A stretch of DNA of 64,000 nt from Dehalococcoidia bacterium. GTDB lineage: Bacteria > Chloroflexota > Dehalococcoidia > Lucifugimonadales > Australimonadaceae. This document shows positions 4,867-17,060 of this stretch, one piece after another. The notes under the pieces are model-generated. The model saw only the letters and a list, made by a program, of their open reading frames with translations, was not told the origin of the DNA and did not search any database. The stretch lies in contig DAOUJX010000006.1 of assembly GCA_034422075.1 (NCBI GenBank), positions 462 through 64,461 on the forward strand, given 5' to 3'. Made by a program: the position numbers and the translations under genes. The first letter of the stretch is position 1, and each line of letters opens with the position of its first letter.

Positions 4867-5317
4867 CGTCTTCCTCTGGTGGGGCCCAATGGGGCGAGAT
4901 TACCTAAACCGAGCACGGCCAAAATTAGTCGTTATATAAGAAACAGTCAATTAACTTTCTATGCATTTTCCGAATTATAGACCCAATTCATCACCGTATT
5001 TAGTAGTCTATAGACTGATAAATTGGCAGTAGTGTGTTGGATTATTCAAGCAGGTTGTGCCTGACATATGGTCAAATACTAAACTTTGTATAAAAGTTCA
5101 AAATGAGTGTCCAAAACCCTCGTCTTTCCATGCCGCCTCCTACCCATGTCTCGATGCGGGTAGTCGCTGCGCAGCTGGCGCCAGCAGGCGGTCAGGACGG
5201 GGCTAACCGCGCTCATGCTCTGCTGCTATACTCCGCTTTCGGCCTGCCCAGTCAGTAGTGGAGGACAGGCCAGATCCCACTGCTCCGCATGATGATTGCG
5301 GTCCGTATGGACGGGTG

Positions 5318-12891: not shown

Positions 12892-13446
12892 TTAGAGCAC
12901 TTCTTCCAGCAGATCTATGAACTTCTCCTTGTTGAGCAGGCCGGAGAAGCTGCGGTGGACGGCGCCGTCCGGGGTCAGGAAGATGGTGGTGGGCATGCCA
13001 AGAACTTCGAAATCACGGACAACCATCTCCTCGAACGTGGTGCCCGAGGGGTAGGTGATGCCCAGCTCGTCAAGCAGTGCCTGGCCGTCCTCACGCGTGC
13101 CCAGCAGCATGAAGGGGCCGATGTCTATACCAACGAGCAGGAAGTCGTCCGCACGCTCGTCATAGACCTCTTGGAAGTGCGGCATCTCGGCGCGGCAGGG
13201 GGGGCACAAGCCTGCCCAGAAGTTGAGGACGATCGGCTTGTCCGTGCGCTCAATCAACCGATGGAGGCTTACCTCCTCGCCACCAAAGACGTCCTGATTG
13301 TTGTAGGCGACGATGGTCACGTCGGGGACGCTAATCTCAGCATCGCTGCTGCCATTGCCGCCACCACAGGCGGAGCCAGCCCCAACGGTCGCCAGCGCGA
13401 GCACCAGCAGGGCGGCGCGGGCGCCTCTACGAAGACGCGGGGTCAT
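12892..13446 (-). CDS. TlpA/ResA-like thiol-disulfide oxidoreductase, probable lipoprotein
   Basis: VLNFWAGLCPPCRAEMP, GMPTTIFL (cis-Pro), N-terminal signal with AGSAC lipobox-like site. Confidence 0.9.
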   Translation of the reverse strand: MTPRLRRGARAALLVLALATVGAGSACGGGNGSSDAEISVPDVTIVAYNNQDVFGGEEVSLHRLIERTDKPIVLNFWAGLCPPCRAEMPHFQEVYDERADDFLLVGIDIGPFMLLGTREDGQALLDELGITYPSGTTFEEMVVRDFEVLGMPTTIFLTPDGAVHRSFSGLLNKEKFIDLLEEVL

Positions 13447-14570
13447 GCCCCGTCCTCCGGCGCGTGCAGTTCAGTGTCAGGGTAGAAATCGCTCCATGCA
13501 AACCAGAAGGAGACGAAGGAGCGGAGCTGCTGCAAGCGTTCACCCTTGAGCGGACCCGCGCTAGCCGAGCCGCTGAGGAGCGACCACGTTGAGCCGGTTT
13601 CGACGTCGCGCATAGCCTGTTGGTCAGGCTCGAATGTCAGGACACGTCCATCGGCGGGTGTGCGGCTGTAGACCGCGCTCGCAGCGGAATTGGGGTCGAA
13701 CACGACGACGATGGGCTGATCGCTGTAGGTGTCGTTGACGACGGGAGCAGATAGGAGTGAGCTGAAGTCGTAGGCGCGGGCGGTCTCGCCCCAATCGAGG
13801 CCGACAACGAGCTCTTTCGGCGGCAGGCGGTCGTCGGGATTGGTCTCGCCCTGTATGCCCGCTGAGTTGCGCAGGTAGTAGTCGTAGTACGGGTCGATTC
13901 GCGGCCCGCCGGAGAGGGAGCGATCGAGCAGCAGCGTGTCGGGGTGCTCCATCGACCAGCGCTCCCACGTCGTCAGTTGCGCAGGCAGCAGTTCCAGCTC
14001 CGTACCGGTTAGCGGCCCCTCGACCGCTTCGGTGAGGAACTGGCTCCAGAGCGTGTCGGTCTGATGATCGTAGAGCACCACGGCGTTCATGATCAGTTTA
14101 CCGGATACGCCGAAGGTGAGTTCCTTTCCCTCTATCTCGCGGGCAAAGACCATGCCCGTAAAGCAGAGCGGTCACCATGTCACCACGATGGGTCTGCCGC
14201 CGACAGTGTCGTTGACGACCTCGTGGGAAGAGAGCTGCGAGGTGGAGTAGGCGCGGTGGTCGCCGTCGATGGAGACGCCGATGACGAGGTCTTGCGGCAC
14301 CATTTGAGCGTCAGCCTCCGCGCCGCTGACGAATATGGGATTGAGGATGGCGGGAATGGCATCCTTGGGCAGCACCGTCCTGATGTCGAGCGAGCGGGCG
14401 GGCGTTGGCGTTGGCAGCGGCGCAATCGTGGGAGTCACCGTTGCAGGCGGCGTGGGCGTGGGCTCATCGCCGCCGTCGGACGTGGTGCAAGAGACGGCGG
14501 ATAGTAGGGCAATCGCACCGAACGCTACGGCGGCAGGGAGACCGCCGCGAGGCGGTGCTAGACGGCGCAC
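13443..14570 (-). CDS. DUF3179-family selenoprotein (UxxC), probable lipoprotein; one gene split by the ORF finder at an in-frame TGA
   Basis: ORFs 14172..14570 and 13443..14153 are in the same frame; read-through gives GRPIVVTW-U-PLCFTGMVFAR, matching the DUF3179 TxCPLC motif; SGKLIMNAVVLYDHQTDTLWSQ, FWFAW. Confidence 0.9.
14140..14158 (-). promoter_or_regulatory. Bacterial SECIS hairpin
   Basis: 13 nt after the TGA: CGGGCA-UGGUCUU-UGCCCG (6-bp stem, GGUCU in loop, resembling the E. coli fdhF SECIS apex GCAGGUCUGC). Confidence 0.8.
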
Positions 14571-16333
14571 TCGCCCTCGCCGCGCTCCAGCTTGTAAAGC
14601 ACCGTCTTGCCCCAGTCCATGTAGAAGTCGAGCGTGTCCTTGGAGAGCGGACCTATCTCCTTGAACTCGGCGAGTATGGCCTCGAATGCGTCGAGCCCCA
14701 CACGCTGGACGAAGTCGTTGAACTCCTCGCCCTGCGTGCGCTGGTCCTGGTAGTAGTCGAGCACCCGGCGCACGGCGGAAGGGACGTGCTTAGAGGGCAC
14801 CTTGACCTTGACGCGGTTGCCGTAGGCCAGCTGCCCTTCGTCATAGTGGCCGCCCAGGTAGACCTCGAACGCCGGTATCTGGTTGCCATCCGGCCCCTTG
14901 ATCGATGCGCCCTGAAAGCCGATGTGCGCCAGGTGATGGCGTCCGCAACCGTTGGGACACCCCGACGCCTTTATGTGTAGCTTCTTGACGAGCGGATCCT
15001 CCAGCAAGCCGTTCCAGCCGGCCATCGCGTCGGTGATCGCGCGATTGAGGCCCATCGACGACGTGATGCCCAGCTTGCACGAGTCGGTGCCCGGGCAAGC
15101 GGTCACATCGCTAATCGTGTGGACCTCTGCATCACCGAGGCCGATCCGCTCAAGCCCCTGCCAGACATCGTGAAGCTTGCCATCGGGCACCCAGCGCAGC
15201 GCGATGTTTTGCTCGGCGCCGAGAGCGATGGTGGAGGAGCCGTGCTCGCGAGCGAGTGCACCTAGCGCGTGGAACTGCTCGGGTGAGAGGTCGCCACGGG
15301 GCACCTTAGCGTAGACGACGTTGTAGCCTTGCTGCGTTTGGGCGAAGACGTTCGTCTGCTTCCAGAGCATATACGCCTTGACGTCACTGCCCGCGGCCGC
15401 GTCAGGGGCAAGAGACGGCGGCTCTTCCTGCGCGAAGGCCATGAGGGGTATCGGGTCGAAGTCGCCCTTGAGCGCCCACTCCTTCCCCAGCTCTTCTTCA
15501 ACGAGGGCGCGCACGGCGTCGATGCCCTTGCGGTGGATGAGCACCTTTATGCGCGCCATCATCTTGTTCTGGCGCAGCTCGTCGGCCTGGTTGAAGACGC
15601 GCAGCGCCGCCTCCGAGACGCGCAGGTAGTCATCGACAGGGACAAATTCGTAGAGCGTCGCGGCCTCCTTGGCCATGATGGAGGTGCCGCCGCCGATGAC
15701 CATCTTGAAGCCCTTGACGCCGTCGCGAACGCGCGCGACGAACCCAAGGTCGTGCATCCCAACGAGCGCCGGGTCGTGCTCGCCCGACGAGAAGGCCGTC
15801 TTGAACTTGCGCGGCATCGACTGCGTAACTGGATGGCGAACGAAGCGGCGCACAAAGGCGACGAGGTAAGGGGTGATGTCGAAGACCTGCTGAGGGTCGA
15901 CGCCGATCATGGGGTCGGCGATGACGTTGCGGACGGTGTTGCCGCACGCCTCGCGCGTACTCAGGCCCGCCTCGCCGAGCACGCGCATGACGGATGCAGC
16001 ATCTTCCAGCTTGATGTGGTGCAACTGGATGTTCTCACGAGTGGTGATATGCCCCCTCTTGAGTGGGGCGTAGCGCTCGACGACGTCGGCCATCGCGTCT
16101 AGCTGATCGGCAGTGCCGAGTCCGCCGGGAAACTTGATGCGCATCATCTGAGCGTCAGGCTGGCGCTGTCCGTAGACGCCGCGTCGCAGCCGCCACGGCT
16201 GGAACGTTGTTTCGTCAATGGCTCCCGATCGCAGGCGGGCGAGTTCCGCCTCAAACTCGTCGGGCTCGACCGCGAGGTAGGGGATGACACCCTTGGTGTT
16301 ATCCATCAGACCGGGTTGAGAGGGGGTGGCCAT
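14558..16333 (-). CDS. Siroheme/[4Fe-4S] sulfite (or nitrite) reductase, ferredoxin-type hemoprotein
   Basis: HITTRENIQ, ACGNTVRNV, PRKFK, CPGTDSC (Cx5C) and SGCPNGCG (Cx3C) ligands, C-terminal GEGECAV; start ATG 16333 preferred. Confidence 0.92.
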   Translation of the reverse strand: MATPSQPGLMDNTKGVIPYLAVEPDEFEAELARLRSGAIDETTFQPWRLRRGVYGQRQPDAQMMRIKFPGGLGTADQLDAMADVVERYAPLKRGHITTRENIQLHHIKLEDAASVMRVLGEAGLSTREACGNTVRNVIADPMIGVDPQQVFDITPYLVAFVRRFVRHPVTQSMPRKFKTAFSSGEHDPALVGMHDLGFVARVRDGVKGFKMVIGGGTSIMAKEAATLYEFVPVDDYLRVSEAALRVFNQADELRQNKMMARIKVLIHRKGIDAVRALVEEELGKEWALKGDFDPIPLMAFAQEEPPSLAPDAAAGSDVKAYMLWKQTNVFAQTQQGYNVVYAKVPRGDLSPEQFHALGALAREHGSSTIALGAEQNIALRWVPDGKLHDVWQGLERIGLGDAEVHTISDVTACPGTDSCKLGITSSMGLNRAITDAMAGWNGLLEDPLVKKLHIKASGCPNGCGRHHLAHIGFQGASIKGPDGNQIPAFEVYLGGHYDEGQLAYGNRVKVKVPSKHVPSAVRRVLDYYQDQRTQGEEFNDFVQRVGLDAFEAILAEFKEIGPLSKDTLDFYMDWGKTVLYKLERGEGECAV

Positions 16334-16392
16334 AAGGGCTCCTTGCCGTTGCACTGACGCTGGCTTCACCAACTAGCACGGGCTCTGATATC

Positions 16393-16427
16393 AAAAGCGC
16401 CCCGTGAGCGAGAGCGTCACAGGGCGC
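16393..16427 (-). terminator. Intrinsic terminator / attenuator in the reductase leader
   Basis: GCGCCCTGTGA-cgctctcgc-TCACGGGGCGC-TTTTG on the minus strand, 60 nt upstream of the reductase ATG. Confidence 0.7.
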
Positions 16428-16453
16428 AGCACCGCCGCGGGGCGGTTCCGGCC

Positions 16454-16510
16454 CTAGTGCATCGTGGGACAGCAGCGCTTGTCCATGCGCTTACAGTAGC
16501 AGTCGTGCAT
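16454..16510 (-). CDS. Cys-rich leader peptide MHDCYCKRMDKRCCPTMH (18 aa)
   Basis: ATG 16510 to TAG 16454; 4 Cys codons including tandem TGC-TGT; stop lies 26 nt before the terminator hairpin. Confidence 0.65.
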   Translation of the reverse strand: MHDCYCKRMDKRCCPTMH

Positions 16511-16655
16511 CCCGCCCGTCAACGACACAACACCTGCCCAAAATAGGAATGCGAAAGCCATAGGGGCTGTTCTACGGGGTTCCTATACTCGTGTGTGGGC
16601 AACTCCGGCACTGCACGGAGTATTTCCGCGTCAACGAATGCAAGGGAGGCCGCTC

Positions 16656-17060
16656 ATGTCGATCGCTATACGTCTCCTATCCATCTACCTCAGTCTCGTG
16701 GGGCTCGCGGTGGCAGTACATTTCATCGCCGTCGCCTGGTACCACCCTGGTGGGGATGAGTCGTATCCCATCTGGGAGATTCTGGACTACTTCATGGCTA
16801 TTGCCTTGCTCATCAGCATCGTCAGCGCGTTCGTTCACAAGCAGCGCTACGACCGCGGCGAGGGTGCAGACCTCCCGGGATTCACAAGCGTCAACGCCAT
16901 CTTCTACGGCACGCTTGCCGTGGCGATCCTCTTCTTCTGGAACTGGTCCCACTTGCTGCGGGAGACTGGAGACGCCGACTGGCTGGTCTGGAACTTCCTG
17001 GACGTTGGAATACCGCTGGCACTGGCCGCAGCCGGCAGGCAGCTGTGGCGTTCCGCCTGA
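16656..17060 (+). CDS. Hypothetical 4-TM membrane protein, paralog 1 of tandem array
   Basis: GGGAGG RBS before ATG 16656; four hydrophobic segments; shares motifs with next ORF. Confidence 0.8.
   Translation: MSIAIRLLSIYLSLVGLAVAVHFIAVAWYHPGGDESYPIWEILDYFMAIALLISIVSAFVHKQRYDRGEGADLPGFTSVNAIFYGTLAVAILFFWNWSHLLRETGDADWLVWNFLDVGIPLALAAAGRQLWRSA

Follow-up and report, generated by a model that had tools for sequence, protein, structure and literature searches.

A probable cysteine-responsive leader attenuator upstream of sulfite reductase in uncultured Chloroflexota

Is the sulfite reductase gene (sir) of an uncultured marine member of the Chloroflexota controlled by a leader peptide that senses cysteine? 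The gene lies on the minus strand of contig DAOUJX010000006.1, in a 64,000-nucleotide (nt) stretch of a metagenome-assembled genome that was analyzed as a whole and is called the window here (62% GC), and it is preceded by a short open reading frame (sORF) containing Cys codons and by a transcription terminator. A preliminary description of this DNA had proposed a cysteine-sensing attenuator at the site. On the basis of an analysis that was computational throughout, we consider it likely that a cysteine-responsive, ribosome-mediated transcription attenuator controls the sulfite reductase operon, the response to cysteine being a prediction. The proposal of a Cys-codon leader with a terminator on this gene was supported by the conservation found in relatives. 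The match that had been noted between regulatory amino acid and pathway also held: the window leader has tandem TGC TGT codons, Cys makes up 19% of the residues over 40 compiled leaders, and the gene encodes a sulfite reductase, which makes sulfide for cysteine synthesis, so that sensing of Cys fits the logic of the pathway.

Promoter, leader ORF, and terminator in the window

The divergent intergenic region between sir and a small membrane-protein gene (plus strand, from 16656) is 323 nt long. Read along the minus strand, it contains a promoter, the sORF, a small hairpin, the terminator, and a Shine-Dalgarno (SD) sequence, followed by sir. The features are as follows.

16517-16522, minus strand: -35 box TTGACG (sequence inspection)
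16493-16498, minus strand: -10 box TACTGT after an 18-nt spacer, 6 nt 5' of the sORF ATG (sequence inspection)
16487-16510, minus strand: first 8 codons (MHDCYCKR) of an 18-codon open reading frame (ORF), coinciding with promoter spacer and -10 box, judged non-coding (frame not conserved)
16454-16486, minus strand: leader sORF, ATG GAC AAG CGC TGC TGT CCC ACG ATG CAC TAG, encoding MDKRCCPTMH and a stop (kept in L001, the closest related locus)
16469-16474, minus strand: tandem regulatory Cys codons TGC TGT
16393-16427, minus strand: intrinsic terminator, 11-bp stem 16427-16417/16407-16397, 9-nt loop, U-run 16396-16393 (folding and terminator scan)
16339-16344, minus strand: SD sequence AAGGAG of sir, 5 nt 5' of ATG 16333 (sequence inspection)
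14558-16333, minus strand: sir, nitrite/sulfite reductase, 591 amino acids (Pfam NIR_SIR 2.8e-46, NIR_SIR_ferr 1.8e-32)

The leader had first been described as an 18-codon ORF, MHDCYCKRMDKRCCPTMH, with 4 Cys among 18 residues. That ORF is present (16510-16454, minus strand), but the conserved ORF starts at ATG 16486. The MHDCYCKR segment is judged non-coding because ATG 16510 lies between the -35 and -10 boxes and is replaced by ACG in L001, whose Sir is 96% identical, and because the upstream frame is not conserved. A further in-frame extension to ATG 16561 (35 codons) is disrupted in L001 by a 1-nt indel. Both the 18-codon and the 35-codon versions were thus ruled out as the leader by promoter overlap, the ACG, and the indel. 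The leader of L001 reads MDKRCCPTMR, with the internal ATG and everything downstream of it retained. As for Cys richness, the tandem Cys-Cys stands, whereas the Cys at positions 4 and 6 of the longer ORF turned out to be promoter sequence, leaving 2 Cys in 10 codons. The A of ATG 16486 is the seventh base past the -10 box, and a start codon this near leaves no room for an SD sequence of the sORF. Judged from the promoter spacing, the messenger RNA of the MDKRCCPTMH sORF is probably leaderless, with transcription starting at or within ∼4 nt of the ATG. Conservation of the frame suggests that the sORF is translated.

The 11-bp terminator stem with its T-run (16427-16393) and the small hairpin (ACCGCC at 16446-16441, loop CCGC, GGCGGT at 16436-16431) are both present as had been described. 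The terminator arms, GCGCCCTGTGA (16427-16417) and TCACGGGGCGC (16407-16397), form 11 bp including one G-U and are followed by TTTT. This hairpin folds at -24.7 kcal/mol (z = -6.85 versus dinucleotide shuffles), and none of 200 shuffles folds as well. In an alignment of 11 sequences from the window's clade, the terminator helix is 91.9% paired, with 3 pairs changed on both sides, and its covariation score is 0.358 versus 0.246 for shuffles, none of 500 of which reaches 0.358. Because the upstream gene is divergent, the leader terminator ends no other gene, and its assignment as the end of an upstream gene was ruled out. The SD sequence of sir follows ∼50 nt past the terminator.

Combinations of this kind are rare in the window. 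Both strands together hold 778 ATG-initiated ORFs of 6-40 codons, and apart from one marginal exception, the leader site (three nested starts) is the only one where a CC or CxC motif has a terminator at least as stable as -12 kcal/mol no more than 100 nt away. A promoter-like hexamer pair followed within 5-12 nt by a short ORF occurs at three sites in the window, of which the leader is one.

The leader module in related loci

The search with the Sir protein returned sequences from uncultured Dehalococcoidia, SAR202, and other Chloroflexota, those other than L001 being 48-77% identical. Conservation of the leader 5' of orthologs had been set beforehand as a point on which the proposal could be refuted. 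About 60 sir loci, from Dehalococcoidia/SAR202 and from Acidobacteriota (Candidatus Acidoferrum), carry the module of promoter, Cys-rich sORF, terminator, and sir. Of 19 Chloroflexota genome loci, 15 have the sORF between promoter and terminator, 5' of sir, and the same module was found 5' of sir in 15 marine metagenome loci from a metagenome scan, in all eight further relatives of the window Sir (60-77% identity), and in 22 loci of the Acidobacteriota type.

The encoded peptides differ widely. Leaders from Chloroflexota genomes read MAHRIGCPCPM, MALLSCCPCPL, MNNICCCPQRA, MDAILTTCACTCT, and MSYSSNICACT, and one Chloroflexota clade encodes leaders of the form M...TCACMKGPRGR(A/V). Metagenome leaders include MRPISINCCICTCPPT, MNLCFCPYCAC, MLKVNGNPCVSCCTCICYIGIR, MSSVVMAMTCCMCSCPCTLGGQEGHVI, and the GTG-initiated VNHFYQKTRACACCRTALRA. 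Among the eight relatives with 60-77% identical Sir we found MNRTCCCPRPA, MSASNCCPCPD, MWWINPECCCCGP, MRYTTPVCCCCSP, MGVRTFACCCCFP, MRPSSPARCCTGVP, MWMMRRVLCSCTSWP, and one TTG-initiated leader. In a large soil clade (20 loci) the leader, M..CCQMMCCPCTCNAACRMTPISGQRSFRT, is 31 codons long and includes 5-8 Cys, and L090 has a different leader of 25 codons (MAEYLQRGMTMCCCCTFVPTCGGQA). The Sir of the soil clade is ∼41% identical to Chloroflexota Sir and 88% identical to proteins labeled Candidatus Acidoferrum sp. (NCBI; Acidobacteriota), and a contig with exactly that Acidoferrum protein carries the leader, the terminator, sir, and a tetrapyrrole methylase gene. Between clades the leader peptides and the leader RNA are unrelated, and what is kept are the Cys clusters, the layout, the promoter-adjacent start, and an in-frame stop before the terminator.

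For the properties of the leaders, 40 were compiled. Cys accounts for 134 of their 703 residues, with 2-8 per leader; the set was selected for at least two Cys, so that these counts are descriptive, yet the excess is far past the threshold. Counted from the start codon, frame 0 holds 134 TGY triplets, frame +1 holds 29, and frame +2 holds 11. Of 31 compiled relatives, 30 have a promoter of the form TTGAC(A/G), 17-18 nt spacer, and TAnnnT in the corresponding position. Thirty of the 31 leaders first compiled have 6-11 nt between -10 box and start codon, which puts the predicted transcription start at or within ∼4 nt of the start codon and would make the sORFs leaderless or nearly so. The L008-L017 clade varies in the N-terminal part of the sORF, where indels are 3 or 6 nt long, and keeps TGCGCCTGT invariant. 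A hairpin with a T-run follows in all 40 leaders, beginning 16-52 nt past the sORF stop. In several relatives the U-run of the terminator ends ∼10 nt from the sir SD sequence, which leaves no room for a separate promoter, so that read-through is the one way in which sir can be transcribed there.

These comparisons bear on two other explanations of the locus. If the sORF were a separate gene with its own terminator, it could encode a functional Cys-rich micropeptide such as a carrier of metal, Fe-S, or sulfur or the precursor of a peptide. Cys-rich small peptides exist, and the 31-residue peptide is fairly conserved within the Acidoferrum clade, but length (10-31 amino acids) and sequence are not conserved across clades beyond the Cys clusters, and the relatives with no promoter room between terminator and sir need read-through for expression of sir. 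Moreover, where the C terminus of the peptide is conserved, nucleotide conservation extends to synonymous sites, which points to constraint on the RNA. We regard a micropeptide gene as very improbable. A chance origin, in which a short ORF arose at random in the space between two divergent genes, beside a hairpin or terminator of the ordinary kind, would agree with the mere two Cys codons of the window leader and with the ease with which GC-rich DNA folds. It is set against about 60 loci in two phyla, a combination unique in the 64-kb window, and an upstream gene that is divergent; we give it hardly any credence, and the comparative data effectively refute it.

The module is missing in L002/L030, L006, and L019, in genomes L020-L029 (Vicinamibacteria and other Acidobacteriota), and in several metagenome loci. 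In L016 (2840-2960) the Cys-Ala-Cys segment TGCGCCTGT, the conserved RNA downstream of it, and the terminator are kept, the adjacent promoter and the ATG are lost, and a promoter-like site lies ∼380 nt upstream; the leader may have decayed at this locus, or it may be initiated differently there. The sir loci of the Tepidiformales type (L019, L053, and L060) are without a Cys leader and share an 11-nt inverted repeat, ACTTTATCAAC ... GTTGATAAAGT, with its halves ∼27 nt apart over the promoter region. Since the repeat resembles a repressor operator, sir is apparently under protein control in that lineage. Among relatives, a second TTGAC-type box lies ∼10 nt 5' of the -35 box or overlaps it in L112, L113, L114, L115, L116, L117, L018, L003, L041, L054, and L007 (for example, ATTGTTGACCAAGCGCGTTGACAAT and TTGACAATTGTTGACC), and the window (∼16531-16517) has only a degenerate copy, GTTGTGTCGTTGACG. 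The second box could be a transcription-factor site or part of a tandem promoter and so add a layer of control.

Alternative RNA folds and the proposed mechanism

The antiterminator pairing, which the preliminary description had left unresolved by eye, is now predicted by ribosome-masked refolding as 16459-16448 with 16429-16418. For these folds the transcript was cut off ahead of the 3' arm of the terminator; the ribosome had a Cys codon in its A site and covered the RNA through +10 nt. The folds gave two further features, the first of them from the minimum free energy (MFE) structure of the full leader.

16469-16479, minus strand: region 1, AGCGCUGCUGU, including both Cys codons, predicted to pair with 16438-16428 (anti-antiterminator state; MFE fold)
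16418-16459, minus strand: predicted antiterminator, a 42-nt stem-loop of CAC-UAG-GGCCGG (16459-16448) with 16429-16418 and the apical hairpin ACCGCC/GGCGGT at 16446-16431 (folding energy)

The basal helix of the predicted antiterminator joins CAC-U-AGGGCCGG to CUG-C-GCCCU-GUG, with the small hairpin at its tip, and the isolated 42-nt segment folds at -26.6 kcal/mol (z = -3.87). When the Cys codons carry the ribosome, the folding energy of the masked transcript is -28 to -29 kcal/mol and 9-11 nt of the terminator 5' arm are paired; moving the ribosome to the stop codon leaves 0 nt of that arm paired upstream. For the whole 94-nt leader, which extends from the AUG to the U-run, the MFE is -46.2 kcal/mol, with the terminator formed. 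In that fold AGCGCUGCUGU (16479-16469) is paired with GCGGCGGUGCU (16438-16428), corresponding to the classical 1:2 plus 3:4 state. Pairing of the Cys codons with the post-stop region occurs in 18 of the 40 full-length MFE folds and is therefore not universal; 33 of these folds have an intact terminator. For 38 of 40 leaders the antiterminator's 5' strand has its predicted start, in silico, from -25 to +12 nt relative to the stop codon, just past the stop in the window's clade and within the last codons in the L008 and Acidoferrum clades. The energy of the antiterminator state compared with shuffles gave z = -2.6 to -3.1 for the window and a mean of z = -2.2 for its clade, where 7 of 13 leaders were below -2. 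Conservation of the antiterminator is limited to a UAG-GGG / CCC core, and the Acidoferrum and L008-L017 clades are too conserved for covariation testing. We take the succession of promoter, sORF, terminator, and sir as shown; the exact pairings of antiterminator and anti-antiterminator are plausible predictions of the folding model.

Under the favored attenuator, a strong sigma-70-type promoter would start transcription at or next to the AUG of the leaderless 10-codon MDKRCCPTMH ORF. When Cys-tRNA(Cys) is plentiful, the ribosome would reach the UAG and cover the antiterminator's 5' strand (CAC-UAG-GGCCGG); the terminator (16427-16397) would then form and RNA polymerase would stop at the U-run, at ∼16393, before sir. 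After ribosome release, or at equilibrium on ribosome-free RNA, the Cys-codon segment would pair with 16438-16428, leaving the terminator again free. When Cys-tRNA(Cys) is scarce, the ribosome would stall with UGC or UGU in its A site and its footprint would end just before CAC-UAG. The antiterminator (16459-16418) could then fold first and sequester 10 nt of the 5' arm of the terminator, giving read-through into sir and the genes behind it.

Three observations concern the stop codon of the sORF. It is TAG in 29 of 40 leaders, which is unusual for GC-rich genomes. In alignment A3 (window's clade) UAG is followed by GG/GGG in 11 of 11 sequences, and a Pro codon precedes the stop in 6 of the 11. 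The UAG-GGG is part of the predicted antiterminator strand, and Pro-stop contexts might slow release and hold the ribosome at the stop.

Several results weigh against this mechanism. The sORF is missing in L002, L006, and L019, the window leader has two Cys codons only, and its U-run is short (4 U). Over the 31 leaders first tested the mean z of the antiterminator state is -1.4, with only 10 leaders below -2, and the basal helix of the antiterminator shows no covariation in fixed register, being 69% paired, equal to shuffles. The terminator 5' arm finds pairing partners in shuffled GC-rich spacers nearly as often as in the real ones, and 29% of the shuffles reach the observed count. The number of upstream-paired bases of that arm was for this reason dropped as proof of an antiterminator, and energies and z-scores were used in its place because pairing counts do not discriminate. 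Lastly, cotranscriptional folding gives the antiterminator even without any ribosome. Repression would therefore hinge, unlike in trp, on efficient leaderless translation, which is putative in this phylum.

The missing covariation in the antiterminator would suit a terminator regulated by a non-ribosomal sensor (a metabolite-binding RNA or an RNA-binding protein) with an untranslated sORF, as would L006 and L016, which keep the hairpin without an obvious ATG-initiated Cys ORF. We found no match to Rfam 15 in the window or in 20 related loci, by which known riboswitch, T-box, and leader families were ruled out; at E values up to 10 the interval 16250-16750 gave nothing relevant, the only match being a meaningless microRNA model on the terminator hairpin. 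Moreover, the leader RNA differs fully between clades while the in-frame Cys, the start, and the stop are kept, and indels keep the reading frame. A sensor of this kind is improbable in our judgment.

We assign a similarly low probability to translational attenuation of the mycobacterial type, in which a stalled ribosome would unmask the ribosome-binding site of sir and the hairpin and U-run would be incidental. The only polycysteine leaderless sORF that has been dissected experimentally works in this manner (10.1101/834739), and the window U-run of 4 U is short. The sir SD sequence, however, lies ∼50 nt past the terminator and in the MFE fold is engaged only in a 4-bp local hairpin. It (16344-16339) is unpaired with the Cys segment (16479-16469) there, and sequestration of the SD sequence was not seen. 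This explanation would also leave unaccounted for a GC-rich hairpin and T-run in 40 of 40 leaders, with a covarying helix.

Known leaders, genes behind sir, and minor observations

Leader-peptide attenuation is textbook biology, with the trp, his, leu, thr, pheA, and ilv operons of Escherichia coli as examples. The leader described here shares with those attenuators a short ORF rich in codons that specify the pathway's amino acid, an intrinsic terminator ahead of the first structural gene, an antiterminator (here predicted) that cannot coexist with it and whose 5' strand is covered by a ribosome finishing the ORF, and, in the window, the 1:2/3:4 state. It differs in the amino acid (cysteine), in the leaderless start without an SD sequence, in having 10 codons with 2 regulatory codons, in the lack of any sequence or Rfam-model similarity, and in the lineages concerned (Chloroflexota and Acidobacteriota).

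In mycobacteria, leaderless sORFs with Cys codons regulate cysteine genes as a "Cys ribulon" (Canestrari et al. 2020, 10.1101/834739). The case dissected there is translational, the Cys tract pairing with the downstream SD sequence with no intrinsic terminator, and according to that study no attenuation mediated by an upstream ORF (uORF) had been described for cysteine before (10.1101/834739). The leaders compiled here resemble the mycobacterial ones in consecutive Cys codons, in their place 5' of cysteine/sulfur genes, and in a leaderless start, which promoter spacing suggests here; sensing of tRNA(Cys) charging by ribosome stalling, known from the mycobacterial leaders, is proposed here too. 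They differ in the terminator found in 40 of 40 leaders, in an SD sequence unpaired with the Cys tract, and in phylum.

Cys-coding leaders with terminator-type structures have also been predicted for cysS, which encodes cysteinyl-tRNA synthetase, as a leaderless 10-residue leader with 2 Cys and a terminator in Deinococcus deserti (PMC4007540) and as the uORFC-8-2 motif, with tandem Cys and a terminator, in Rhodobacterales (PMC8632094). Like the window leader, these computational or transcriptomic predictions have two Cys codons in a short uORF before such a structure, and the D. deserti leader is in addition leaderless and of 10 residues; the target in both is cysteinyl-tRNA synthetase rather than sulfite reductase, in other phyla and with unrelated sequences. 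The leaders of actinobacterial cys operons are without recognizable terminators, and Rho dependence was proposed for them (Seliverstov et al. 2005, PMC1262725). They share with the present ones runs of Cys codons near the stop and a place 5' of sulfate-assimilation/cysteine operons, and differ in that the intrinsic terminator is the most conserved element here.

What is new here are the phyla (Chloroflexota and Acidobacteriota) and the target gene, the kind of regulation being already known. A search of full-text literature on leader peptides, attenuation, and (poly)cysteine in Chloroflexi/Acidobacteria found nothing, with most subscription-journal papers outside its coverage, and a Cys leader on sir has apparently not been described before in these two phyla. 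We incline, by a narrow preference, to the view that the leaders constitute an undescribed phylum-spanning class of leaderless polycysteine transcription attenuators, located on the sir/siroheme operons of marine Chloroflexota and soil Acidobacteria, with a layout that appears to have arisen repeatedly, and that they are the first of the classical terminator/antiterminator type for Cys on a cysteine-biosynthetic gene. Cysteine was long missing from the list of amino acids with leader-peptide attenuation, and the element described here has all the parts of a classical transcription attenuator, its antiterminator being predicted. The Cys attenuators may belong to a larger cysteine regulon that these organisms control through sensing by the ribosome.

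The genes behind sir vary by clade, with siroheme synthesis in some and thiol-redox proteins in the window's clade. HemD follows in L047, L054, and L041, TP_methylase in L079 and L110, and an AhpC/thioredoxin-like protein in L003, L112, L114, and L116. From this variation the attenuator probably also controls the supply of cofactor or redox partners. In the window, a DUF3179 gene (13443-14570, minus strand) lies directly downstream of sir and is adjoined by a thioredoxin/AhpC-like gene (12892-13446). The DUF3179 frame contains an in-frame TGA at 14174-14172 (...IVVTW-TGA-PLCFTG...); the stop also occurs in L018, a 74% Sir relative, and the L001 ORF is split at the same place. All full-length DUF3179 homologs have Cys at the TGA position, within an invariant W-C-P-L-C motif, and many database homologs are gene calls of 232-250 amino acids that begin just past it. 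A hairpin, GGGCA-UGGUCUU-UGCCC (∼14157-14141), lies 14 nt past the UGA and is identical in these three loci. The gene looks like a candidate selenocysteine (UxxC) form.

If the attenuator reading is true, it would link sir together with the DUF3179 selenoprotein candidate, the thioredoxin-like gene, HemD, and CobA to cysteine supply in a way that can be read from sequence, and it would support the idea that Chloroflexota and Acidobacteriota make regulatory use of leaderless translation. The proportion between terminated and read-through transcripts would then mark cysteine/sulfur limitation in marine and soil metatranscriptomes. The lineages with the element are not yet culturable, and marine SAR202/Dehalococcoidia are abundant. 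Gene callers and Rfam overlook these sORFs, which a covariance or pattern model could annotate.

Among the neighbor genes scanned, cysH and cysDN (sulfate activation/reduction) were not found near sir. A possible second Cys leader at +5215 (MLCCYTPLSACPV...), a CC-containing sORF with a weak hairpin, was judged to be a chance occurrence because the 5' end of a class-V aminotransferase ORF overlaps it and neither a promoter nor a strong terminator accompanies it. Near this sORF, a strongly AT-rich intergenic stretch of ∼230 bp (4900-5130) precedes the class-V aminotransferase gene.

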